This document shows, piece after piece, positions 661-12,942 of a DNA stretch of 14,984 nucleotides (the stretch's first letter is position 1; the number at the start of each line of letters is the position of its first letter). The translations under genes were made by a program, and so were the position numbers. The stretch lies in the NCBI GenBank assembly GCA_963849245.1, contig CAWKIY010000061.1:1-14984 (forward strand), given 5' to 3'. Under the pieces are notes generated by a model. The model was not told where the DNA came from. It saw nothing but the letters and a program-made list of their open reading frames with translations, and made no database searches. Source of the DNA: a candidate division FCPU426 bacterium (GTDB lineage: Bacteria > Oederibacteriota > Muellerivitia > Muellerivitales > Muellerivitaceae).

Positions 661-1203
661 ATGAGTGAATTGGTTTCGAACAGCAATGTCGAACAGAAAA
701 TATTTCTTGTTCGCGGTCTGAAGGTAATGTTTTCACAAGATCTTGCGGAACTTTATGGAGTCGAATCAAGGGCTTTGGTGCAAGCTGTAAAACGGAATCG
801 GGAAAGGTTTCCAAACGATTTCATGTTTGAATTATCCCCTCAGGAACTGAAGAACTTGAAATCACAATTTGTGATTTCAAGTTGGGGTGGTTCACGCAGG
901 GCCAAACCGTACGTTTTTACCGAACAAGGTGTCGCCATGTTATCCAGCGTTTTGCGGAGCAAGAAGGCTATTCGGGTAAACATCGAAATCATGAGGGCAT
1001 TTGCCCGATTGAGGGAAATTTTGGCGGTCAACAAAGACTTTGCCCGCAGGCTGGAAGAATTGGAGAGGAAGTATAATGCCCATGACCACCAGTTTCAGGC
1101 GGTATTCGATGCCATTCGGGATTTGATGAAAACTCCGGAGAAACCGAAACGTCGAATTGGGTTTAACGCGGAGGAGTTCCGGGCGCTCTATCGTGTGCGT
1201 TAA
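661..1203 (+). CDS. ORF6N / KilA-N-like domain protein (phage anti-repressor-like DNA-binding protein)
   Basis: A 180-aa ORF with AGGA 6 nt upstream of the ATG. The N-terminal region (KIFLVRGLKVMFSQDLAELYGVESRALVQAVKRNRERFPNDFMFEL...KSQFVISSWGGSRRAKPYVFTEQGVAMLSSVLRS) matches the ORF6N domain consensus as I remember it. The C-terminus is a predicted helical or coiled region. Confidence 0.8.
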   Translation: MSELVSNSNVEQKIFLVRGLKVMFSQDLAELYGVESRALVQAVKRNRERFPNDFMFELSPQELKNLKSQFVISSWGGSRRAKPYVFTEQGVAMLSSVLRSKKAIRVNIEIMRAFARLREILAVNKDFARRLEELERKYNAHDHQFQAVFDAIRDLMKTPEKPKRRIGFNAEEFRALYRVR

Positions 1204-1640: not shown

Positions 1641-2390
1641 TCAAAACCTCTGAACCAACCCCAACTCCACCTGATGCGGGCCTGGCTCGACTAAGAAGGA
1701 AACCGGGTTTTCGTCCTTCACCACGTAGTTATAACGGGTGACCGCGGAATACCTGTCATTGATCGCGTTCGTTTCAAGCGCCAAACCGGCGAGTCCCATT
1801 CCTGCTCCGATTAGTTCGGCTATTACATCCACGGTCAAATCGGGTTGGGTCTGGGTGGGTGTGGTTAAGTTGCCGGTGGCCTGGAAATTGTTGAAACTTT
1901 GGTTTTGGCTGTTCACGTTGGCTTGATAATTGGCCGACAGCCGTCCAATCATATCGATGGTGCCGATGACAACCGCCGCCGCGCCGCCGCCGATGAGTCC
2001 CCAACCCACTGCCTCCTCATCCTTAGCGGCTTCAATCAAGTGGGTCGCTTGCGGGTCTTGAAGGGGATTGATCACACTTTCTAACTGGTCATAACTTTGC
2101 AGGACCGTCCCCTCGTAAGTAAAACTGAGCGGGACATAACAACGCCTAGCCAAGTCCCAGCGGGCTGAGATATCGATGGGTTGGAGATGGCTTTTCGGGG
2201 AGTCCTGTGAATCCGAGTTGTCGGTAGGGGACGCCGCGGCTGGGGTCTGTAATTGCGCTTTTGGCGCTGGAGGCCGGGTATCTTTTGAGGGAATGGGGGT
2301 GGCGGTTGGGAAATCCCAAACGCCCTCTTCTTCGGCCTGGACTTGGGAAAGTCCACTGATCAGCAAAAGAAACACGATCAAGAAACGCAT
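1641..2390 (-). CDS. Secreted hypothetical protein with a Pro/Thr/Ser-rich linker and two Gly-zipper-like hydrophobic segments
   Basis: A 249-aa ORF. GGAGAGG lies 6 nt upstream of the ATG on the minus strand. The N-terminus MRFLIVFLLLISGLSQVQA is a classic signal peptide. The segments GWGLIGGGAAAVVIGTIDMIG and VIAELIGAGMGLAGLALE are Gly-zipper-like. I saw no recognisable catalytic motif. Confidence 0.6.
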   Translation of the reverse strand: MRFLIVFLLLISGLSQVQAEEEGVWDFPTATPIPSKDTRPPAPKAQLQTPAAASPTDNSDSQDSPKSHLQPIDISARWDLARRCYVPLSFTYEGTVLQSYDQLESVINPLQDPQATHLIEAAKDEEAVGWGLIGGGAAAVVIGTIDMIGRLSANYQANVNSQNQSFNNFQATGNLTTPTQTQPDLTVDVIAELIGAGMGLAGLALETNAINDRYSAVTRYNYVVKDENPVSFLVEPGPHQVELGLVQRF

Positions 2391-2730
2391 AGGTCACCTC
2401 TCCAGAATCAGATTTGTCCATCTCGGGGGCGGTTCAACCTATCCCCATTCAATAGAGTCTCGACCTGCGGTTTTATTCCGTTTTTTTGGAATAAAATTTC
2501 ATCGGAGCGCGCTTCCGTTGGTTAGGACGAAGGAGTTTTGGAAAGGTGTCGCGGATATTATTTCCACGAAAAAAATACATCGGAAAAACACGGCCGCGAC
2601 GGCACAAAAACAGCGGAAGGGAGCCGCATTAAATGGGGTCAAAAGTGGAAAAAGAGAATTTTTTAGAATGACAAATTCTTTCGTAAATCCTCTAAAATTG
2701 GATATAAATACCTTCGATCAAGGAATTGGA

Positions 2731-4794
2731 ATGAAAAAATCCCTCTTTGGCCTCATCCTCTTCGCCCTCGCGTCCCCCCTTTTCGCCGATCAAGACCTCT
2801 ACACCGCCCAGGTGCTGGGGAACGGGGTGGTGACGGTTTATCGGAATCAAAACCCCGTGGTCAGCATCGCTCCCCGGATTTACTTGGAGGGGTATGAGAA
2901 TGTCCACATCGATTCCTGGGTGAAAGACCCGGTTTACAACGGGATGGCGACTCTTCCAACGGGAGAACAGGTGGGGCTGGTTTCCTCCGTGACGGTTTCG
3001 GGCGGGGAGATTCACGCCCATTACCGCTTTACGCCTTTGAAAGACGTGAAGGTTTTTCGAGTGCAGGGGCTGGTCTATTGGCCTTATCCGGATTGGGTGG
3101 GGGCGCCTTACCAAATGGGTGAGAGTAAGGGTGTTGTTCCTTCGCAAAAGAAGAAAAATTTTATCCTGGCCCGTTCGAAAGCGGATTCTTTTTCCCTGGG
3201 GCCGACGGCTTCGGAGGAACTGACTTTTCAGGTGAAGGGGGAAGGGCTTAATTGGGGGCTGGTGGATCCTGGGGCAGCTTATCCTTTTTTGGGGCTGGTC
3301 TTGGACCACCACGAGCCGGAGGATAAAACCTGGGTTTGGAAGGCGGGAGAGACAAAGGATTTTGATTATACCGTGACGCTGAACCATGACATTACCACCG
3401 CGGACAGCCTGAGCCGGACAAATCAAGAAGGGTTTGAGGGGACTTGGTACGGGATGGCGCAGGCCAAGGAACGCCGGTTACGGACAGCCCTGCTCATTAC
3501 CCGTGGAACCGATGGGAAATGGACGGTCTATTATGACGACCTGGAAGGCGGGCGGTACCATCAGGTAAATAAAAACGTCACGGTGAAAGGAAACAAGCTT
3601 CACTGGGGAATTGGGCCCGATGTCACGGATATGAGGTTGGACCCGAAGACGGATACGATTCAAGGCGAGGGCAGTTACAAAGGGTTCACCTACACACTGG
3701 ATTTAAAACGGGGCTTGAACTACACCCTGCCCCGGGTGGACGTGGACGGCCAGGCGGTGACGGACTATAGCTACCAGGTGCCCCAAACCCTGGATGACGG
3801 CTGGGCGGTGGGTGATTTGAAAGACAGCCCTTTGAACCCGAAGATTGTTGAAAAGGGAATCCAGGAAATCCTGAATCAAAAGTATTTGAATCAGCAAGGC
3901 CTGGTGGTGGTCCAGAAGGGCAAGCTTTTGGTGGATGAGTATTTCGAGGGCTTTGGGCCGGGGGATATGCATCAACTGCAATCCGTCTCCAAGTCGGTTT
4001 TCTCGATTCTGTTTGGGATCGCCCAGGACCAGGGTTTAATGAATCTGGAAGACAAGCTTTACGACTATTACCCCGACTACCGAAACAAGCCGAATTGGAC
4101 GGACCAGAAGGGCAGAATTAAACTGAAGCATCTCTTGTCGATGTCTTCCGGTTACGATTGCGACGATTGGATGGCGCCGGCGGACAAGTGCTTGAAGGAA
4201 ATGCTGAAGTCTCCCGATTGGATATCGCTGATCCTTTCAGAGCCGATGGCCCATGAACCGGGCACTCATTTCGCTTACTCTTCCTCCAGCATGGAACCCC
4301 TGGGCGAGATTTTGAAAAATAAGAGCGGGTTGAGCGTGTCCGACTTCGCCCAGAAATACCTGAATGATCCCTTGGGGATTCCTTATTTCCATTGGTCTGA
4401 GGGGCCCCATGAGGTTGTGGGAATTTCCGGCGGGGATAAGTTAAGGCCCCGGGACATGGCCAAACTGGGCCAGCTTTATCTGCAGAATGGCAGATGGAAA
4501 GACAAGCAGATCGTGTCCAAAAGATGGGTCGAGGATTCCACCCAGCCCCAGGTGCCCAACCCCAAAGAAGGTCACCGCTACTTTGAGTACGGCTATTTGT
4601 GGTGGATGGAGCAGATGCCCTGCCAGGGCAAGATGGTTCGGGTCTTTTACGCGGCGGGCAAAGGCGGGCAATTTATTTTCGTAGTCCCCGAACTGGAACT
4701 GGTCTGCGCCATGACCGCGGGGGATTATCAATATGATCAAGCCACCTACCCGGGCCATGATTTTTTTGAGACGTATATACTAGGGGCGTTTTAA
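2731..4794 (+). CDS. Secreted two-domain protein: unknown N-terminal domain (~370 aa) plus C-terminal beta-lactamase-fold serine hydrolase (PBP/class-C-like) domain
   Basis: Start is chosen at ATG 2731 for three reasons: AGGA sits 7 nt upstream, the signal peptide MKKSLFGLILFALASPLFA follows immediately, and the 2176-2730 extension is antisense to the neighbouring gene. The C-terminal domain has a SVSKS motif (S-x-x-K) and an AAGKGGQFIFVVPELELV motif typical of the beta-lactamase / esterase family. It also has the motifs HFAYSSS and LVVVQKGKLLVDEYFEGFG. Confidence 0.8.
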   Translation: MKKSLFGLILFALASPLFADQDLYTAQVLGNGVVTVYRNQNPVVSIAPRIYLEGYENVHIDSWVKDPVYNGMATLPTGEQVGLVSSVTVSGGEIHAHYRFTPLKDVKVFRVQGLVYWPYPDWVGAPYQMGESKGVVPSQKKKNFILARSKADSFSLGPTASEELTFQVKGEGLNWGLVDPGAAYPFLGLVLDHHEPEDKTWVWKAGETKDFDYTVTLNHDITTADSLSRTNQEGFEGTWYGMAQAKERRLRTALLITRGTDGKWTVYYDDLEGGRYHQVNKNVTVKGNKLHWGIGPDVTDMRLDPKTDTIQGEGSYKGFTYTLDLKRGLNYTLPRVDVDGQAVTDYSYQVPQTLDDGWAVGDLKDSPLNPKIVEKGIQEILNQKYLNQQGLVVVQKGKLLVDEYFEGFGPGDMHQLQSVSKSVFSILFGIAQDQGLMNLEDKLYDYYPDYRNKPNWTDQKGRIKLKHLLSMSSGYDCDDWMAPADKCLKEMLKSPDWISLILSEPMAHEPGTHFAYSSSSMEPLGEILKNKSGLSVSDFAQKYLNDPLGIPYFHWSEGPHEVVGISGGDKLRPRDMAKLGQLYLQNGRWKDKQIVSKRWVEDSTQPQVPNPKEGHRYFEYGYLWWMEQMPCQGKMVRVFYAAGKGGQFIFVVPELELVCAMTAGDYQYDQATYPGHDFFETYILGAF

Positions 4795-5018: not shown

Positions 5019-6458
5019 TTAGGCGATTAAAGTTTTCTTCCTCAAGTCGGTGTTGCTCAAGTGAAGCTGAATGTCCTTGATGATTTGATCGACCGCCAGA
5101 CCCTCCACACAACGGGCTTTCGCGCAGGTTTTCATCATCTTATTGACGCAGGTAATGTTGCGGCAGGGACTTTGGGAAACGTAGGTTTTGGAGGGCGCGT
5201 CCTGATTGGCGGGAGGATAGAGGGGATCGGTGGAATCGTAACCCGACATTCTTGAGGGGGTCGCGCCAAAAACCGAAATGACGAAAGTTTTGTTTCGAAA
5301 CGCGTGATTCCCGGTGCGTGAAACTTTCCGGGCCGCCCCGATATGCAGAGGTCCCGTATCCCCGGAAAGAAAAACATCCGCGTAATCAATTAAAACCGCG
5401 TAGGACTCGATCGGCAGGGTAGGCGGGGGAAGAAAAACCCGGCTTCTTTCCTGCGGGGACAAGGTTTCCAAAAGCTTTTCTCCCATTTCCTCATGAGTAA
5501 AAGACGCCCCCAGCAGGACAGAACAGTCCAGCTTCAGCCATTCCTTGAGAATCCGGGCCTGGTGCCCGAGGGGGATGAGGGTATAGGGGGAAGCCGTATC
5601 AGGATTTAAAAAGAGAATCGGCTTATTCAGGGGAACATCCCGCGCGCGCAGGAAGGTTTGGGCTTTCTGGACAGCCTCATCCGACAGGGTGACCGGAACG
5701 CCCTGAAACCGCCGGGCGGGGGCGGGCAGACCCAGGGTTTGGAAAAGCTCTTCCAGATAGGAATAGGACAAATGCAGGAAATGATTGATGCCTTCGCGGT
5801 TCATTTCACGCCGGATGACTTGAGGGGCGGTGGTCATAAAGTTGAGGACCGCCTGTTTTTTGGAAAAAAGCCATTTGTCCTGCAAAAGGGATGAGGCGTT
5901 GAAGCAAAGGTCATAATGGTTTTCCTGAACCAACTGATGGACAGCTTGGATGTCCTCCGGAGCGGGAAAAACGGATCCCGTGAAGAGGGGATAAAGACGG
6001 GTGATGGCGGGATTACCCCCGATCAGGCCCGCCACTGATTTTTTGACCACATAGTCAATTTGGGCGCCGTGGAAATAATCCCGAAAAGCCATGACCGCCC
6101 CCTGCATCATGACCGCGTCGCCGATATGAATATCCGAGATGACGAGGATTTTGCCGAACCGGGGGATGCCCTTGAGTATCCGAAGGTTTTTGTTGAAAGC
6201 GTTTTTGACGAGAAGTTGATGGCCCAGGACAGGGGGAATGAGGGCGTTCAAAAGCCGGGAACCGCTTTGGGGAAACCAGGCGGTCAGCAGGCTGGTCAGG
6301 TGAAAAAGAAATTTTTGGATTTTGTTTTCAAACCGGGGTTTGGGGGAGTGGAAGAATTTTCGCCGTAACAGACGCCAATGGGTAGTGAGGCCGGGAAAAT
6401 TTGCCGGGAAATTATTTTTGGATAAGCGGCGATCCATTGGAACGGTTAAAAATTTCAT
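5019..6458 (-). CDS. Glycosyltransferase family 9 protein (ADP-heptose:LPS heptosyltransferase-like)
   Basis: The GT9 N-terminal motif ILVISDIHIGDAVMMQGAVMAFRDYFHGAQIDYVVK and C-terminal motif FLSGDTGPLHIGAA...VISVFGATPSRMSGY are both present. The first about 100 aa (MKFLTVPMDRR...) form an unusual extension; the start codon is uncertain and the true start could be internal. Confidence 0.8.
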   Translation of the reverse strand: MKFLTVPMDRRLSKNNFPANFPGLTTHWRLLRRKFFHSPKPRFENKIQKFLFHLTSLLTAWFPQSGSRLLNALIPPVLGHQLLVKNAFNKNLRILKGIPRFGKILVISDIHIGDAVMMQGAVMAFRDYFHGAQIDYVVKKSVAGLIGGNPAITRLYPLFTGSVFPAPEDIQAVHQLVQENHYDLCFNASSLLQDKWLFSKKQAVLNFMTTAPQVIRREMNREGINHFLHLSYSYLEELFQTLGLPAPARRFQGVPVTLSDEAVQKAQTFLRARDVPLNKPILFLNPDTASPYTLIPLGHQARILKEWLKLDCSVLLGASFTHEEMGEKLLETLSPQERSRVFLPPPTLPIESYAVLIDYADVFLSGDTGPLHIGAARKVSRTGNHAFRNKTFVISVFGATPSRMSGYDSTDPLYPPANQDAPSKTYVSQSPCRNITCVNKMMKTCAKARCVEGLAVDQIIKDIQLHLSNTDLRKKTLIA

Positions 6459-6745: not shown

Positions 6746-7513
6746 CTAGGAGCCTTGGGGAGTGAATTGGGTGGATAAATCCCCGTCGAAAACAATGGGA
6801 CCCACATGCTGAAGGCGGCTTTGGGTGTCCACCCAGATCTCGCCGCCCATACGGGTCCAGCGGCGGCTGAAGCTGAGGTCTTCCGGGAGGTAACGGCCGG
6901 TGGTTTCGTCGATGAACTCGTTGAAAAGCGCGAAACGGTTGGGGCTGTTGGGGAAGGGATCGGTGGCCAGAAAACCGCTGGTATATTTGAGCTCGGGATA
7001 GCGCTGGATCATCTTCTGGAAGACGGATTTTTTAAACAGGACAAAACCCATCCCGGCGTAAAGCGCCTGGGCGAAACCGTTTTTGAGATTTATTTTGGCC
7101 GGATTCTCAAACTCCACCCCGTAGGACCAAAGCTCGCCGCTCTGGACCTTTTTTTGACTTTGATAGATTTGCCGAACCTGATCCAGGTCCAAGCGCTTGT
7201 AGGGATAAACCGCCGCGGTCATTTCCGCGTCAAATTCCAGGAGCCGCAGGACTTGTTCGGGCTTGAAACCGATATCCGAATCGATGAAGAGCAGGTGCGT
7301 CGCCTGCGGGGTTTCCATAAAGCGGGTCACTAAATCCTGGCGGGCCCGGGAAATCAGGGCGTCGCCCCATTGAACCGAGACTTCCACATGGTGGATGCCG
7401 AATTGATGGCTGACTTCCAGAAAGCGCAGGACCGAAGAGGCGTAAACGGCGGAAAGCTGGCCCCCGTAAGCGGGAGTGCCGATCATCAGGTGGAGGGGGG
7501 AATTGGTTTTCAT
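6746..7513 (-). CDS. Putative GT-A-fold glycosyltransferase (paralog A of a tandem pair)
   Basis: A 255-aa ORF. Its motifs are N-terminal LMIGTPAYGGQ, a DxD-like THLLFIDSDIGF, YAGMGFVLF and EDLSFSRRW, which match the Fringe/GT31-like pattern (DxD, GxGF, ED..). It sits adjacent to the GT9 gene. The family assignment is tentative. Confidence 0.55.
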   Translation of the reverse strand: MKTNSPLHLMIGTPAYGGQLSAVYASSVLRFLEVSHQFGIHHVEVSVQWGDALISRARQDLVTRFMETPQATHLLFIDSDIGFKPEQVLRLLEFDAEMTAAVYPYKRLDLDQVRQIYQSQKKVQSGELWSYGVEFENPAKINLKNGFAQALYAGMGFVLFKKSVFQKMIQRYPELKYTSGFLATDPFPNSPNRFALFNEFIDETTGRYLPEDLSFSRRWTRMGGEIWVDTQSRLQHVGPIVFDGDLSTQFTPQGS

Positions 7514-8313
7514 GACGGCTTCTTCGGGGCGTTCATGAGGAAATTCTGGGCCACATCGCCTTTGAAATTCTCGGGTCCCATGTGGTTCAAGCGGCTTTGG
7601 AAATCCGCCCAGATTTCCCCGCCCATGTCGGTCCAGCGTTTACAGAAACTATAATCCTCGGAAAGATAATCGCCTTTTTCGTCGATCAGGCAGTTGAAAA
7701 GGGCGAAATGGTCTTTCTCGCCCTGGGGACCGAGCACCTTGTATTTCAACTCGGGGTACTTTTGCGCCATGGCCTCCAAGACCTTCCGCTGGATCATTAA
7801 AAAACCGGTCCCGGCTTGGGCGACCCGGCCGAACCCATTGACCATTTGGTATTGTTCTTTTAATTCAATGACGTAGGAAAGCCCCGCCGATTCCAAGTTT
7901 TCGTAGCCCGCCAACATTTTCTTTTTCAGCATGTCCCAGTTGTAGCGCTTGAGGGGATAAATTCCCGCGCAAACTTCCTTATTGAACTGAAGGAACCGCA
8001 GAACCTGTTCGGGCTCATAGCTGATATCGGCGTCGATGAACAACAAGTGTGTCGCGGTAGGGTCCTCTAAAAAATAAGAAACGATATTTTGACGGGTCCG
8101 GGTGACCAAAGCGTCGCCCCAGGGCATGGCGAAGGACAAGCGGATTCCGTTTTTCGCGCAAAAGTTTCGGAGCCGTAAAGCGGCGAGGAAGTTGGCGACG
8201 GTGATCTGGCCCCCGTAACAGGGGGTGCCAATGACGAGGTGAACAGGGGTGTTGGACAAAGTGGAAACCTTTGGTTCGGGTTTATCCGGATATTCTGAAA
8301 AGGACAGGCGCAT
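7510..8313 (-). CDS. Putative GT-A-fold glycosyltransferase (paralog B; overlaps paralog A by ATGA)
   Basis: A 267-aa ORF homologous to 6746-7513 along its whole length. Shared motifs are GTPCYGGQ, THLLFIDADISYEPEQVLRFL, AGTGFLMIQRKVL, YPELKY, EDYSFCKRW and GGEIW. There is a 4-bp overlap between its stop and the start of paralog A. Confidence 0.55.
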   Translation of the reverse strand: MRLSFSEYPDKPEPKVSTLSNTPVHLVIGTPCYGGQITVANFLAALRLRNFCAKNGIRLSFAMPWGDALVTRTRQNIVSYFLEDPTATHLLFIDADISYEPEQVLRFLQFNKEVCAGIYPLKRYNWDMLKKKMLAGYENLESAGLSYVIELKEQYQMVNGFGRVAQAGTGFLMIQRKVLEAMAQKYPELKYKVLGPQGEKDHFALFNCLIDEKGDYLSEDYSFCKRWTDMGGEIWADFQSRLNHMGPENFKGDVAQNFLMNAPKKPS

Positions 8314-8530
8314 TATATTTCACTTTTTGTCTTTTCACCAAGAAAGGGATTTGGAGACTTAATTTCCACTTCGTACTTAAAAGTTATGTTTGTAGGAAGT
8401 TAATCCTACCTCTTGCGCTAAAGCGCGATGCGGTTCTCGTTATGAAAATAAATAGCGGAACAGTATGGAAAAGAGGAATTTGCCATTAGGCGCAACCCTA
8501 AATACCCCTAAATCCTATGTTCAAATGGGC

Positions 8531-8559
8531 TTGACAGGTTGATATCAAATAGATATCAT
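8531..8559 (+). promoter_or_regulatory. Sigma70-like promoter for the SPFH operon (-35 TTGACA 8531-8536; 17-bp spacer; -10 TATCAT 8554-8559) embedded in operator-like repeats
   Basis: Consensus -35 and near-consensus -10 with ideal spacing lie about 30 bp upstream of RBS AGGGAGG (8577-8583) and ATG 8588. Three 11-bp-phased GATAT(C/T) repeats overlap the spacer and -10. An outer inverted pair CTTGACA (8530-8536) / TGTCAAG (8572-8578) encloses the region. Confidence 0.45.
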
Positions 8560-8587
8560 TTAGATATTAATTGTCAAGGGAGGAATT

Positions 8588-9484
8588 ATGTCGATATCCA
8601 ATGTTTCCGTGGGTGGGAAAAAAGGCGGGATTCAAGAGAAGGTTGTCGGGGCTATGAACGGGATTACCATGATTCTCATTTGGCTGGTCGCCGCGATTAT
8701 CATCGCAGGTGTGCTTTCCACCGGGACGGGGTTCGGGGGGGCGTTGGCGGTTTTGGCTTTGATTGGTTTTGTCCTCTCATTGAAGGGTTTTTTTACCGTA
8801 AACCCGAATGAGGCCAAAGTGCTTCAGCTTTTCGGCACCTATGTGGGAACGGTTAAGACAACCGGTTTATGGTGGACCAACCCTTTTTACGCTTTTCGGA
8901 GCGTTTCCTTAAGAACCCGCAACTTTGAGACGGAAAAGCTGAAGGTGAACGACAGCACGGGGAATCCCATTGAGATCGCCACGGTGGTCGTCTGGGAAGT
9001 CGGCGACTCGGCGCAGGCGGTTTTCCAAGTGGATGACTATGAGAAATTTATGAAGGTTCAAAGCGAGTCCGCGATCCGCAATCTCGCGTCCCAGCATCCT
9101 TACGACCAGCACGAGGAAGGGGATTTATCCCTGCGGACCCATACCGAGTCCATCGCCCAAAAACTGAAAGAGGAGATTGAGGAGCGGGTGGCCGGCGCGG
9201 GAATTGAAATCCTCGAGGCGCGGATCAGCCATTTGGCTTACGCCCCGGAAATCGCCAGCGTGATGCTCCGCCAACAGCAAGCCACGGCCATTATCGCCGC
9301 CCGGCAGAAAATCGTCGAGGGCGCGGTGGGCATGGTGGAAATGGCGCTCAACCAAATCGAGAAAAAAGGACTGGCGGAACTGGACCCGGAGCGCAAGGCG
9401 GCCATGATCAGCAACTTGATGGTCGTTCTTTGCGGGGACAGCGACGCCAAACCGGTCGTCAACGTGGGAAGCCTCTACAATTAA
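8588..9484 (+). CDS. SPFH / band-7 family membrane protein (stomatin/prohibitin/flotillin/HflKC superfamily)
   Basis: A 298-aa ORF with a strong RBS. It has an N-terminal hydrophobic region of two predicted TM helices. The SPFH core has these motifs: FFTVNPNEAKVLQLFGTYVGTVKTTGLWWTNPFY, KLKVNDSTGNPIEIATVVVWEV, FQVDDYEKF. The C-terminus is helical. Confidence 0.88.
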   Translation: MSISNVSVGGKKGGIQEKVVGAMNGITMILIWLVAAIIIAGVLSTGTGFGGALAVLALIGFVLSLKGFFTVNPNEAKVLQLFGTYVGTVKTTGLWWTNPFYAFRSVSLRTRNFETEKLKVNDSTGNPIEIATVVVWEVGDSAQAVFQVDDYEKFMKVQSESAIRNLASQHPYDQHEEGDLSLRTHTESIAQKLKEEIEERVAGAGIEILEARISHLAYAPEIASVMLRQQQATAIIAARQKIVEGAVGMVEMALNQIEKKGLAELDPERKAAMISNLMVVLCGDSDAKPVVNVGSLYN

Positions 9485-9485
9485 G

Positions 9486-9674
9486 ATGGCCGCCGACCCG
9501 AGAAAAACCTTTCTGGTTCGTCTGGACCCCCAGACGGTCGAGGCATTGCGGCGCTGGGCGGAGGACGAGTTCCGCAGTTTAAACGGCCAAATCGAGTTCG
9601 CCCTCCGCGAGGCCCTGCGCAAACAAGGCCGGTTGCCCAAACCGAAAGAGGCTCCTAAACCAGGGGACGATTAG
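9486..9674 (+). CDS. Arc-family ribbon-helix-helix DNA-binding protein
   Basis: A 62-aa ORF starting 1 bp after the SPFH stop, so translational coupling is likely. TFLVRLDPQTVEALRRWAEDEFRSLNGQIEFALREAL matches the P22 Arc pattern F-x-L-R-x-P-x-E...A-E-E-x-G-R-S-x-N-x-E-I closely. Confidence 0.75.
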   Translation: MAADPRKTFLVRLDPQTVEALRRWAEDEFRSLNGQIEFALREALRKQGRLPKPKEAPKPGDD

Positions 9675-9915
9675 TCAGCAGCTTGTTGATCCTCTGGCCG
9701 CTAGTGTTTGTTGGTTCTTCCTTTTAAACTCAAAAATAAGTTCATTCACATGAATCCACTTCTAATCCCGTTGATTTATTTATGTTGGTCAAAATCGTCC
9801 AAATTATAAGCGGGCGAAAGATTCGGAATATTTACCATCTCTTTACTTTAATCCCGGGTAAATGGGAAAATAGTCTTGGGTATCGGGTTCTATTTAATTA
9901 TTTAAGGGAGGTTTT

Positions 9916-11991
9916 ATGGATATGGGGATGCTTTTATTGGGTTTTGGCGTTTTTATTCTTCTGATTGTTTATTTCAACTCGGTCGTGCTGGTGGGTGGAA
10001 CTCAAATCGCGGTTTTGGAAAGACGCTATTTCGGTAAGCATATGCCGGAAGGCCGGGTTGTGGCCATGGCCGACGAAGTGGGTATGCAGGCCCGTTTGCT
10101 GGGACCGGGACTTCACATGTTAACTCCTTTTATATATCGAGTTATGAAAAGCCCAATGATCACCATTGGCGAAACCGAAATCGGTTTGGTCGAATCCATT
10201 GACGGCAAGCCGGTTGCCCCGGGACAAATCTTCGCCAGGGAAGTGCCGGAGCATAACCTATTTCAGGATGGAGAAGCCTTTTTGCGTAATGGCGGACAAA
10301 AAGGTTCGCAGGTTCAGATTTTGCCTCCGGGGCTTTACCGCATTAATCCCTATCTTTTTCGCGTTGAAAAAGAACCCGCGGTGAGCGTGGCCAATAATAT
10401 GGTAGGCGTGGTGGTCGCGACGGACGGCGAACCCATCAGCCCGGGCCGGCTGTTGGGTAAAAAAGCGGACGGCCACAACAACTATCAAAATGGCCAAGCC
10501 TTTTTACAAAATGGCGGTCAAAAGGGACCCCAAATTGACCCGCTTCTTCCGGGAACTTACCGCATCAACACCAAACTGTTTCAAGTGACGATTCAGGACG
10601 CCACCGTGGTTCCAACCAAGAAAGTGGGATTGGTCACGGCGCGAGACGGCGAGCCTTTGCCATCCACCGAATATGTGGCGCGGACCACTCAAGGCCATCG
10701 GGACTTTCAGGACGCGGCGGCTTTTTTGCAAAACAGCGGCCAAAGAGGACCCCAACTCGATTTTCTGCGTCCCGGCACTTATTACGTGAATCCTTATATG
10801 TTTGGTATGACGCTGGATGACGTATTGATGGTTCAGCGTGGCGAAGTGGCGGTGATTGTTTCCAACATCGGGAAAGACCCGGTTTTGGCCGCGGCAGACC
10901 CTCAGGTGACTTCCATGGACGGCCAATTAAAAGACGGTATGGAGCATTATGTGGTGGACGCGGGTTTCCGCGGTATTCAAAAGGAAGTTTTGGGTCCTGG
11001 AACTTATTACCTCAATAAGCTGGCCTTTACCTCCTACATTATTCCCACGACAAACATCACTATCGACTGGGCTTCGGAAATCAACAGCGCCCAGACTCCC
11101 CGGGTTTTCAACCCGCTTTCCATTGTTTCCAAAGACGGGTTCGAGATGACGGTGGAAGTCAAGGTGATCCTGAGGGTCCAGCCGGAACAAGCGCCCCACA
11201 TGGTGGCCCGGATCGGAACCATCGAGAACTTGATCGAGCATGTGATCCATCCCCTGGTGGACAGTTCTTTCCGCAACCAAGCTTCTTCCTCAGAGGCCAT
11301 GAAATTCATGCAAGACCGGCATGAGGAACAAAGTAAGGCGGAAGACCATATCATCGATGAGCTCAAGAAATACCATGTGGAGTGCGTGAGCGTGCTCATC
11401 TGCCAGATTAAACTGCCCGAGAGATTGATGGAGACTATGACCAATAAGGTTGTGGCGAACCAGCAGATGTCCATGTATGACGCCCAGCAGGAAACCGAGG
11501 GACGCCGGCGCGAAATGGAAAAGACCAAGGCTCAAGCGGATTTACAGCCCAGTCTGGTGAAGGCGGAAATTGACGTACAGATCGCCACCCAGCAGAAGCA
11601 ACAGGCGGTCATTTTGGCCGAGGGAAAAGGCCAGTCGACGAAGCTGGAACAGGAGGGTATCGCGGCGGGCGTAGAGGCGGTGGGTAAGGCGGAAGGCGAA
11701 AAAATCCGGGCTATCGGCCAGGCGACGGCGGAAGCTTATTCCAAACAGGCCCAAGCTTTGGGCCAGCAGCCTCTTTCCATTATTGAAATTATGAAACAGG
11801 TATCGGAGGGCAACGTCAAGATTACTCCGGATATCGTGGTTTCGGGGAATGGGGAGGGAGGCTCCAGCAACGTGCTCGCGGCATTTATCGCCAGCATGAT
11901 GGCGGGCGGAGTGAAGTTGGCTCCGGCCTTGGCTCCGCCGCCGCCAAGCGCGCCGGCCGTCCCCAGCGCCCCGGCTTCCGATAAAAAGTAA
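9916..11991 (+). CDS. Flotillin-like SPFH protein (691 aa) with an expanded N-terminal array of ~74-aa tandem repeats
   Basis: RBS AGGGAGG lies 4 nt upstream of the ATG. The protein has an N-terminal TM helix. An SPFH entry motif GPGLHMLTPFIYRV is followed by repeats carrying PPGLYRINPYLF, LPGTYRINTKLF, RPGTYYVNPYMF and GPGTYYLNKLAF. Next comes an SPFH core (FEMTVEVKVILRV), then a flotillin-type E/A/Q-rich coiled region, and finally a Gly-rich/Pro-rich C-terminal tail. Confidence 0.88.
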   Translation: MDMGMLLLGFGVFILLIVYFNSVVLVGGTQIAVLERRYFGKHMPEGRVVAMADEVGMQARLLGPGLHMLTPFIYRVMKSPMITIGETEIGLVESIDGKPVAPGQIFAREVPEHNLFQDGEAFLRNGGQKGSQVQILPPGLYRINPYLFRVEKEPAVSVANNMVGVVVATDGEPISPGRLLGKKADGHNNYQNGQAFLQNGGQKGPQIDPLLPGTYRINTKLFQVTIQDATVVPTKKVGLVTARDGEPLPSTEYVARTTQGHRDFQDAAAFLQNSGQRGPQLDFLRPGTYYVNPYMFGMTLDDVLMVQRGEVAVIVSNIGKDPVLAAADPQVTSMDGQLKDGMEHYVVDAGFRGIQKEVLGPGTYYLNKLAFTSYIIPTTNITIDWASEINSAQTPRVFNPLSIVSKDGFEMTVEVKVILRVQPEQAPHMVARIGTIENLIEHVIHPLVDSSFRNQASSSEAMKFMQDRHEEQSKAEDHIIDELKKYHVECVSVLICQIKLPERLMETMTNKVVANQQMSMYDAQQETEGRRREMEKTKAQADLQPSLVKAEIDVQIATQQKQQAVILAEGKGQSTKLEQEGIAAGVEAVGKAEGEKIRAIGQATAEAYSKQAQALGQQPLSIIEIMKQVSEGNVKITPDIVVSGNGEGGSSNVLAAFIASMMAGGVKLAPALAPPPPSAPAVPSAPASDKK

Positions 11992-12006
11992 TAAAGGCGC
12001 GTTTCG

Positions 12007-12501
12007 ATGAGAAAACTTACCTCGAGTGAATTAACCCAATCGGGATTCGGAACGGCTTCTGAATTTATTTCGCACGGGACGGGAGAGGATCTGACAAAAG
12101 AGATCCAAAAAGACTTCCGGAAGCATGGATCGGTTGAGAAGTTCTTTTACTTTTGGGAAGGAATGTTTTCCAAACTTGGGTGGCAATTGACCCGGGACGA
12201 GCTGCTGGCGATTGGCATGGGCGACTCCTTGCTTGAGGGCCAGACCGACGGCGATCTGGTAAAAAACTCGAAAACTTCCTTCTTGCGGATCTTGACCCGG
12301 AGGGAAAGCAACAACGATATCGATCTGGAGCCGGGCTGCGCGATTGGTTCGCAGCAAGTTGGCAAACAGGTTCATTATGTGATTAAGGGGACAGATGGAA
12401 ACATCCTGGGCTGGCTCCCGTTTGGATCCGTGAAAAGCATTAAGTTAGTTACCGGCGTTGCCGGAGTTTCGGAGCCGCATGATGGTTCGGAAAGTTTTTA
12501 A
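12007..12501 (+). CDS. Hypothetical protein (164 aa) sharing a C-terminal ~40-aa motif with the next ORF
   Basis: The ATG lies 15 bp after the flotillin-like stop, with a weak AAAGG 9 nt upstream. The C-terminus is CAIGSQQVGKQVHYVIKGTDGNILGWLPFGSVKSIKLV. There are no TM segments. Confidence 0.55.
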   Translation: MRKLTSSELTQSGFGTASEFISHGTGEDLTKEIQKDFRKHGSVEKFFYFWEGMFSKLGWQLTRDELLAIGMGDSLLEGQTDGDLVKNSKTSFLRILTRRESNNDIDLEPGCAIGSQQVGKQVHYVIKGTDGNILGWLPFGSVKSIKLVTGVAGVSEPHDGSESF

Positions 12502-12542
12502 ACTGGAATTTATAGTATCGTTAATTATTCAAGGAGGGTTCT

Positions 12543-12788
12543 ATGAGTTTATTTGATTCTGAAAATCCTGTTGAGAAAAAACCGAAGAAAATAAAACCTT
12601 TTTACCGGGTTTATACCATGACAGAAGATGAAGCGGTTGACCATGAACCCGATTGTCTCGTCGAGGCGGTCGCGGTGGGGAATGAGGCTCATTACGTGGT
12701 CAAAAAAGCGGATGGCACGATCGACGGAATGTATCCTTTCTCAAACGTTGAGTATGTCATTCGAGTTACTGAGGAAGAGGAAGAATAG
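12543..12788 (+). CDS. Hypothetical protein (81 aa) with an acidic tail, paralogous in its core to the C-terminus of 12007-12501
   Basis: Strong RBS AAGGAGGG (12531-12538) 4 nt upstream of the ATG. The core CLVEAVAVGNEAHYVVKKADGTIDGMYPFSNVEYVIRV aligns with the upstream ORF's C-terminus. It ends in EEEEE. Confidence 0.6.
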   Translation: MSLFDSENPVEKKPKKIKPFYRVYTMTEDEAVDHEPDCLVEAVAVGNEAHYVVKKADGTIDGMYPFSNVEYVIRVTEEEEE

Positions 12789-12845
12789 GGAAAGCAAAAC
12801 AAGAAGAGGGTTCGGTGGCATTTTACGAAAATTGTGATTAACCCG

Positions 12846-12882
12846 GGGGCGGCTTTCGTTTTGAAAGCCGCCCCATTTTTTT
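12846..12882 (+). terminator. Rho-independent terminator closing the five-gene plus-strand operon
   Basis: GGGGCGGCTTTC-GTTTT-GAAAGCCGCCCC is a 12-bp GC-rich perfect stem. It is followed by ATTTTTTTATC, a 7-T run, and lies 58 bp after the last stop codon. Confidence 0.85.
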
Positions 12883-12942
12883 ATCTTTTAGTGTTATTGG
12901 AAAAAGTGAGCGTCAGAAGATTTTTGACGTCGTCTTTGGAGT

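Follow-up and report, generated by a model that had tools for sequence, protein, structure and literature searches.

Do five adjacent genes on the same strand, encoding two SPFH proteins with predicted membrane anchors, a small Arc-type protein, and two small paralogs, make up one system? The genes, g1 to g5, are in a stretch of 14,984 nucleotides from a candidate division FCPU426 bacterium (GenBank assembly GCA_963849245.1, contig CAWKIY010000061.1), referred to here as the window, and a first-pass annotation had described them as one functional module. Coordinates of the genes in the window are as follows.

8588-9484, plus strand: g1, SPFH/Band 7 protein of 298 amino acids (aa) with an N-terminal hydrophobic hairpin
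9486-9674, plus strand: g2, Arc-type ribbon-helix-helix (RHH) protein of 62 aa, the predicted autorepressor of the g1-g2 cassette
9916-11991, plus strand: g3, membrane-anchored SPFH protein of 691 aa whose layout resembles the one seen in major vault protein (MVP)
12007-12501, plus strand: g4, soluble protein of 164 aa, with a helical N-domain ahead of a small beta-barrel of five strands
12543-12788, plus strand: g5, acidic soluble protein of 81 aa, a beta-barrel domain of the g4 type and a poly-Glu tail

The locus is probably a chance, lineage-specific juxtaposition of independent units, and not a five-gene system. We scanned one genome per species, found that 312 species encode a relative of g3, and analyzed the best 80 loci with up to 8 kb of flanking sequence. 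These loci span Elusimicrobiota, Oligoflexia, Fibrobacterota, Legionella, Coxiellaceae, Myxococcales, Acidobacteriota, Nitrospirota, Bacteroidota, Chloroflexota, Geobacteraceae, and Desulfovibrionales. There was no homolog of g1 or g2 near g3 in any of the 80 loci, and none of 83 loci with a g1 homolog had g3, g4, or g5 nearby. Clustering of the open reading frames (ORFs) that flank g3 in the 80 loci gave no conserved neighbor family; the commonest, response regulators, was present in 15.

The closest relatives of g3 were also found without g1 and g2. The pair was missing from all five contigs with a g3 that is 86-88% identical (L001 and L081-84), including the nearest genome, a 'candidate division FCPU426' metagenome-assembled genome with a g3 that is 87% identical (L001). 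Gene order was g4-g5-g3 on three of these contigs (L081-83) and g5-g3 on L001, placing the small genes on the opposite side of g3 from where they are in the window. Because synteny was missing in both the 80 g3 loci and the 83 g1 loci, we dropped the five-gene module; the synteny check that the first-pass annotation had itself set came out against it. We believe that the value of the locus is in the vault-like family of g3 and in the unusually well-conserved operator-like motif upstream of g1, and not in the proposed operon.

The long SPFH protein g3 and the major vault protein

The predicted fold of g3 most resembles that of MVP. We used Foldseek to compare an AlphaFold2 (AF2) model of the g3 monomer, built from an alignment of 64 sequences, with structures in the PDB. 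The 11 best matches were all MVP (E 2e-11 to 1e-8, approximately 720 aligned columns), above prohibitin, erlin, HflK/C, stomatin, flotillin, and QmcA. A fragment of MVP with repeat domains only (R1-R7, with neither the SPFH domain nor the helix) also matched g3 (E 2.7e-6, 432 columns), and two independent fold-comparison methods both ranked MVP above every SPFH cage protein. The mean pLDDT of the model was 74, with values mostly between 79 and 93 over repeats R1 to R4 and low confidence in the C-terminal tail after the helix. The predicted parts of g3 are listed below.

9922-9981, plus strand: transmembrane (TM) helix, residues 3-22, from the AF2 model and hydrophobicity
9982-10197, plus strand: repeat R1, residues 23-94, beta-rich
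10198-10419, plus strand: repeat R2, residues 95-168, beta-rich
10420-10641, plus strand: repeat R3, residues 169-242, beta-rich
10642-10863, plus strand: repeat R4, residues 243-316, beta-rich
10864-11085, plus strand: repeat R5, residues 317-390, beta-rich
11086-11418, plus strand: SPFH alpha/beta core, residues ~391-501, the equivalent of the vault 'shoulder'
11419-11805, plus strand: long helix, residues 502-615 and then 618-630, the equivalent of the SPFH coiled-coil wall or the vault cap-helix

g3 belongs to a large family. Pfam Band_7 (PF01145) matched residues 351-526 (E 9e-22, 78.4 bits compared to a gathering cut-off of 23.6 bits), and there are more than 4000 homologs, typically 690-700 aa long and 55-75% identical across phyla. 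(The source contig, the 16.9-kb Logan contig ERR11630394_26601, encodes a protein identical to g1; its public gene call of g3 is 689 aa, compared to 691 here.) The first-pass annotation had called g3 an unusual flotillin-like protein. That description undersold a family that is large and highly conserved and has a predicted fold closest to MVP. The SPFH, Arc, long SPFH, and two-paralog assignments of the first-pass annotation were correct.

The repeats of g3 likely arose when the N-terminal SPFH subdomain was duplicated internally: each of them carries the canonical SPFH 'PG-h-x-x-P-f' hairpin. The five units have a period of 74 aa; R2 to R4 are mutually 39-47% identical, and divergence is greater in R1 and R5. 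The Band_7 alignment begins at repeat 5. The repeats are old. No DNA-level repeats were found in g3 by Tandem Repeats Finder, and the ungapped DNA identity between units is 50-57%, ruling out a recent expansion. The protein-level repeats in the earlier description of g3 as repeat-expanded are real. The number of repeats varies among relatives of g3, either five or seven; for example, two proteins of 820-850 aa (P0005 and P0018, e.g., from Chitinilyticum litopenaei) have two additional units. A different number of repeats would change the height of any cage formed by g3.

The sequence predicts that the body of g3 is cytoplasmic. In g3 and the 63 homologs aligned with it, a TM helix at the start of the protein is immediately followed by repeat 1. 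Across the 64 sequences, lysines plus arginines averaged 0.06 ahead of the TM helix and 3.0 in the 20 residues that follow, a positive-inside bias from which we predict a cytoplasmic protein body. Both g1 and g3 are predicted to have the N-terminal anchor, SPFH domain, and C-terminal helical region that define SPFH proteins.

We suggest that g3 would be built of five stacked beta-domains that fold like MVP repeats, an SPFH 'shoulder', and a long 'cap' helix, all held at the membrane by the N-terminal TM helix. Judging from vaults and from all SPFH cages solved so far, the likeliest assembly of g3 is a tall half-cage with ring symmetry on the membrane. The membrane would take the place of the second half of the vault, and the cage would enclose a patch of membrane and a cytoplasmic lumen. 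One reading of these similarities, which we offer tentatively, is that the g3 family is a widespread, membrane-anchored bacterial half-vault with repeats that are true homologs of those in MVP. It would assemble into a tall barrel-and-cap cage at the cytoplasmic face of the membrane and be the missing intermediate between canonical SPFH half-cages and the free eukaryotic vault. In this lineage, the acidic g5 and g4 would then be its first identified partners or cargo, and, independently, the SPFH-RHH pair would be a dosage unit.

The layout of g3 is like that of MVP in the order of its modules: stacked small beta-domains, then an SPFH-type 'shoulder', then a long helix. Five repeats, as in g3, are also found in MVP homologs from Asgard archaea (PMC12962969). 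In contrast to MVP, which is soluble and has two halves joined via their N-termini, g3 has an N-terminal TM helix; its repeats are 74 aa long and their sequence similarity to MVP is undetectable. The distribution of the family is also different. MVP domains have been stated to be unique to vaults, with prokaryotic MVP homologs in only a few bacteria (PMC13100048, PMC12962969). Those described are from a few gliding bacteria and cyanobacteria, and the bacterial MVP-like proteins include one Herpetosiphon 'band 7' protein, UniProt A9AUD4, with a reported MVP-like fold (PMC3762200; bioRxiv 10.1101/872010). The g3 family, unlike these few, is found in 312 species across many phyla.

Three points weigh against a half-vault. 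The overall confidence in the g3 model is moderate (pLDDT 74, pTM 0.55). At the level of sequence, g3 resembles neither MVP nor the Pfam Vault families: Pfam Vault and MVP_shoulder did not match g3 at E ≤ 1, and a profile search of the PDB listed QmcA, prohibitin, flotillin, and HflC, and no MVP chain, at E ≤ 10, so a sequence link to MVP was rejected. QmcA was the only PDB chain that matched at E ≤ 0.01 (E 0.0015). Lastly, the resemblance to MVP could be convergent, by way of the internal duplication of the N-terminal SPFH hairpin subdomain.

Convergence is the core of the alternative that survives best. g3 might be a long bacterial flotillin (YqiK-like) in which the SPFH hairpin subdomain was duplicated, so that the likeness to MVP is convergent and the protein forms a flotillin-type dome with a thicker wall. 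We consider this a possible explanation, although a doubtful one. It would account for the SPFH hairpin in every repeat and the alignment of Band_7 from repeat 5 onward, and for the profile matches to QmcA, prohibitin, and flotillin-2 with none to MVP. Those to flotillin-2 are weak (g3 residues 566-674 to flotillin-2 residues 298-406, E 0.015), as are those of residues 547-674 to the helices of prohibitin and flotillin-2, and Pfam Flot did not match g3. Several members of the family are labeled 'YqiK' or 'HflC' by JGI, and a tblastn search with g3 reached Rhizobium 'flotillin family proteins' (27% identity over 85% of the length). However, both fold-comparison methods placed MVP first, even with the R1-R7 fragment, and the order TM helix, repeats, SPFH domain, and helix in g3 parallels the repeats, shoulder, and cap helix of MVP. 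Furthermore, convergence and deep homology are compatible, because the domains of MVP may themselves derive from such duplications.

g3 also differs from the known bacterial flotillins and their operons. Like the SPFH proteins of SPFH-NfeD operons (FloT-YuaF, FloA-YqeZ, YqiK-YqiJ, and QmcA-YbbJ), g3 is predicted to be membrane-anchored and to have an SPFH domain and a long helix, and formation of a cage, as known for QmcA (PDB 8z5g), is expected. Unlike in flotillins, beta repeats account for approximately 300 additional residues between its membrane anchor and its SPFH core. In contrast to the SPFH-NfeD operons, there is no NfeD gene beside g1 or g3, either here or in 163 related loci, and g1 is instead partnered by an RHH repressor-like protein. 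NfeD (PF01957) had no match at E ≤ 1 in any of the five proteins encoded in the window, in agreement with the earlier claim that the usual NfeD partner is missing.

g4 and g5 may be functionally linked to g3. Neither has a Pfam family match. They share a domain of approximately 60 aa (39% identity, E 3e-14), confirming that they are paralogs with a common motif. A hidden Markov model (HMM) of this domain, used to search six-frame ORFs of 171 loci, matched only next to g3 (L001, L081-83, and the source contig). The adjacency to g3 was kept in three genomic contexts with the small genes on either side of g3, and its persistence through rearrangement suggests a lineage-specific functional link, with g4 and g5 as partners or cargo. 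One close relative, with g3 and neither g4 nor g5 on an 8.3-kb contig (L084), argues against such a link. Searches for a broader family were unsuccessful: there were three matches in an index of 5.8 billion proteins and approximately five true relatives among 1.84 billion representative proteins. Three of these relatives (P0244-P0246) are of the g5 type, approximately 80 aa with a poly-Glu end; the other two match only the N-terminal helical domain of g4, which also occurs alone. We think of g4 and g5 as orphan small beta-barrel proteins of this candidate-phylum lineage; they accompany g3 and probably serve its assembly as accessory partners or cargo.

The function and origin of vaults are long-standing puzzles. 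If the repeats of g3 are homologous to those of MVP, then the origins of vaults would be rooted in bacterial SPFH proteins. The g3 family is found in hundreds of species, some of them cultured, including Legionella massiliensis, Solidesulfovibrio aerotolerans, and Geomesophilobacter sediminis, and it would make both the evolution of the vault wall from SPFH cages and the contents of such cages testable.

More distant relatives of g3 (33-35% identity over 90% of the length) were found on Ralstonia megaplasmids and in a 642-kb genome of an uncultured phage (LR756502.1, 343892-345547). Several large Vibrio phages also encode a relative, including MG592609.1 and MW824375.1. Together, the phage and Ralstonia (L169) relatives have 25.7-34.5% identity covering 53-90% of g3. 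On the Ralstonia plasmid, the SPFH gene is followed by a run of small hypothetical genes, and the g5-domain HMM found no g5-like ORF there.

The SPFH-RHH cassette and its predicted operator

g1 and g2 form a conserved two-gene cassette. g1 matched Band_7 (PF01145; E 1e-24, 88 bits compared to the gathering cut-off of 23.6 bits) and has two hydrophobic segments at approximately residues 18-73 that are predicted to anchor it in the membrane. Its homologs are a large family of proteins of approximately 289 aa with approximately 60% identity. g2 matched Pfam Arc (PF03869) just above the gathering score (21.8 bits compared to 20.4 bits), PDB chains of pArc (E 8e-6) and P22 Arc (E 0.015-0.04), and the PHROG family 'Arc-like repressor', and had weak Pfam matches to ParD_like and FitA-like. 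There were 74 loci with a g1 homolog and enough downstream sequence to judge. A g2 homolog was directly downstream in 69 of these, and three more had it on the same strand at a greater distance, separated by one or two small genes. In the remaining two, the contig stops where the RHH ORF seems to start. The median spacer between the SPFH and RHH genes was 9 nt, and there was no third conserved gene among the neighbors of the g1-homolog loci.

The RHH proteins are strongly conserved over the fold (consensus rK.flLRidp.vl.A.QRWA.DdLRSlNaQIEflLR.ALr.aGRl). They are approximately 55-66 aa long with a short, variable, Pro/Lys-rich C-terminal tail, which in g2 is approximately 12 residues. The cassette is found in variable genomic contexts, in some cases on plasmids, and the gene pair together with the three-box motif described below is also present in Bacillus thuringiensis and Deinococcus sp. 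RefSeq names the RHH gene 'HicB family antitoxin' in B. thuringiensis and 'hypothetical protein' in Deinococcus, and g2 was omitted from the public gene call on the source contig (L085, 8634-8822). The RHH family appears to be systematically missed or misnamed in public annotation.

The cassette tolerates genes between the SPFH and RHH genes. In Permianibacter sp. (L086; GCA_013179735.1, 4001-6330), a DUF4177 gene and a hydrolase gene are between the two; the RHH homolog follows at 6090-6269, and the SPFH gene still has GATATC boxes upstream. Two other loci (L104 and L106) have a small membrane protein inserted at this position.

An operator-like motif overlaps the promoter-like site upstream of g1. 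The two features are as follows.

8531-8559, plus strand: promoter-like site of the SPFH-RHH cassette, TTGACA, 17 nt, and TATCAT, matching at 11 of 12 positions
8541-8568: predicted RHH operator, boxes GATATC (8541-8546), GATATC (8552-8557), and GATATT (8563-8568) with 11-bp spacing

The boxes are inside a pseudo-palindrome bounded by TTGACA (8531-8536) and TGTCAA (8572-8577), and the -10 hexamer TATCAT (8554-8559) falls within the central GATATC box. TGATATCA-like boxes, one helical turn apart, recur in the regions upstream of g1 homologs. We searched these regions for two GATATC hexamers 11 bp apart with no more than one mismatch in total, and used windows of equal size from the same loci as controls. 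The box pair was present in 56 of 65 upstream regions, compared to 1 of 1294 control windows. The usual arrangement is one of three boxes, often in a perfect palindrome, e.g., GATGTCAAAGTGATATCACTTTGACATC, and 8541-8568 is the only site with a box pair in the 15-kb window.

These results are most economically explained if the SPFH and RHH genes form a bicistronic operon and g2 is its Arc-like autorepressor, with DNA binding and repression predicted from the conserved gene pair and the conserved operator-like motif over the promoter. The same two features strongly back the earlier proposal of Arc-type autoregulation, as applied to the SPFH gene. Dimers of g2 would bind cooperatively to the three GATATC boxes at their 11-bp spacing and, since the boxes overlap the -10, both g1 and g2 would be repressed. 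g1 would be a hairpin-anchored SPFH scaffold protein that faces the cytoplasm, and repression could keep constant the amount of a protein that would form large cages of fixed stoichiometry. One consideration weighs against this explanation of the motif: the central box resembles an extended -10 (TGnTATCAT), and promoter function could explain part of its conservation.

Alternatively, g1 and g2 might be a toxin-antitoxin-like or abortive-infection pair, in which an RHH antitoxin neutralizes a membrane-perturbing SPFH 'toxin' and regulates its own expression. RHH proteins with operators that overlap a promoter are typical of type II antitoxins, and the weak ParD_like and FitA-like matches of g2, the name given to the Bacillus homolog, and the presence of the cassette in variable contexts including plasmids are all consistent with this. 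However, the tail of g2 and its homologs is short and not conserved, leaving no toxin-neutralizing domain in proteins of this size. As for g1, it belongs among the ordinary, highly conserved SPFH proteins and matched neither a toxin nor a PADLOC model. The putative toxin gene would also be first, which is the less common order. Because g2 has no conserved neutralizing tail and g1 is an ordinary SPFH protein without a PADLOC match, we consider a toxin-antitoxin function unlikely, indeed very much so.

As a predicted autorepressor, g2 is similar to the RHH autorepressors Arc, Mnt, and CopG: it is small, matches Pfam Arc above the cut-off and the P22 Arc chains, and has a predicted operator of tandem or palindromic boxes approximately one helical turn apart over a promoter. 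Unlike these repressors, g2 is outside the context of phage immunity or plasmid copy control and is coupled obligately, as the downstream gene, to a single SPFH subfamily in many phyla, with a predicted TGATATCA operator in three copies that is conserved over this whole range.

In the library searched, we found no paper that links SPFH genes with RHH proteins (including Arc, CopG, and antitoxin), and a widespread, autoregulated SPFH-RHH cassette is apparently undescribed so far. If the predicted regulation is correct, the TGATATCA operator would be pan-bacterial and the cassette a new, experimentally tractable unit that regulates the dosage of SPFH scaffolds. With a repressor and a defined operator, it could be a simple way into the control of SPFH scaffold levels in bacteria, and it is found in tractable strains of Bacillus, including the Bacillus cereus group, and Deinococcus.

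Transcription signals and genomic context

The sequence is compatible with transcription of g1 to g5 as a single unit. The five plus-strand genes, the gaps between them (1, 241, 15, and 41 bp), the promoter-like site, and the terminator hairpin were all found as the first-pass annotation had claimed. The remaining features of the block are below.

9675-9915: AT-rich spacer of 241 bp between g2 and g3
12846-12884, plus strand: intrinsic-terminator-like hairpin and T-run that closes the plus-strand block

The hairpin (12846-12874) has 13 pairs, 9 of them G-C, and is followed by ATTTTTTTAT. The starts of g1, g3, and g5 have in common the strong ribosome-binding context AAGGGAGG, as had been claimed, within an initiation context of approximately 25 nt (TTAATTATTxAAGGGAGGxxxTATG) at 8566-8590, 9894-9918, and 12521-12545, respectively; the g3 and g5 copies are 84% identical. 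There were five promoter-like sites in the region compared to 3.5 expected from shuffled sequences, a count that is not above that of the shuffles. It is possible that g3 has its own promoter.

The 241-bp spacer had no recognizable element. It contains no terminator-like or promoter-like site, no Rfam match, and no GATATC box pair, its predicted RNA fold is no better than that of shuffled sequences (z = -0.15), and in alignments its similarity to the regions upstream of g3 in relatives is patchy only. An RNA element or terminator in the spacer was rejected on the basis of the Rfam search, the fold z-score, and the patchy alignment.

Some of these signals count against a chance juxtaposition of independent units. 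The shared strand, the spacer without a terminator, and the common ribosome-binding context before g1, g3, and g5 fit co-transcription, and local functional coupling of g1 to g5 in this organism is possible. At its fullest, that idea makes all five genes one autoregulated membrane module, perhaps responsive to stress or phage, in which the two SPFH proteins co-assemble (as in the hetero-oligomeric SPFH cages in PDB entries for HflK/C, flotillin-1/2, prohibitin-1/2, and erlin-1/2), Arc controls an operon that has a single strong promoter-like site and a single strong terminator, and the paralogs are adaptors. This is highly improbable: it is largely refuted by the missing synteny, including in the relatives with 86-88% identical g3, there are no operator boxes upstream of g3, PADLOC matched none of the five proteins, and hallmarks of a mobile element (tRNA, flanking repeats) are missing.

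We also considered whether the block is a defense system or a mobile insert, as the first-pass annotation had proposed in calling it an accessory insert and possibly phage-responsive. Neither proposal held up. No PADLOC match was found at E ≤ 1 for any of the five proteins, and the neighbors are non-defense genes except for one candidate. We found no tRNA, integrase, Rfam element, or notable flanking direct or inverted repeats around the block, and its GC content is within the range of the window. On the minus strand, the block is flanked by a tandem pair of glycosyltransferase-like paralogs together with a GT9 gene, a TupA-type ATP-grasp gene, and a class-V aminotransferase gene.

The candidate defense gene encodes an ORF6N-domain protein of 180 aa (661-1203, plus strand; Pfam E 8e-34, with a weak Rha match) that matched the PADLOC candidate PDC-S05 (E 2e-57). 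Located 7.4 kb upstream of g1, it has no relationship to the SPFH genes and is the sole PADLOC match among the neighbors.

The tandem paralogs are probably part of a glycan-synthesis cluster, because they adjoin a GT9 heptosyltransferase-like gene (5019-6458). The paralogs (6746-7513 and 7510-8313, both on the minus strand) encode proteins of 255 and 267 aa and overlap by 4 nt. Neither has a Pfam family; both matched phrog_1574 (E 1e-31 and 4e-35), with a weak match to a phage glycosyltransferase PHROG as well.

The longest ORF (2176-4794, plus strand, 872 aa) probably starts further in; the public call on the source contig is 708 aa, corresponding to a start at 2668. The C-terminal domain of its product is beta-lactamase/transpeptidase-like (E 8e-28), and the long N-terminal region ahead of it has no family match.

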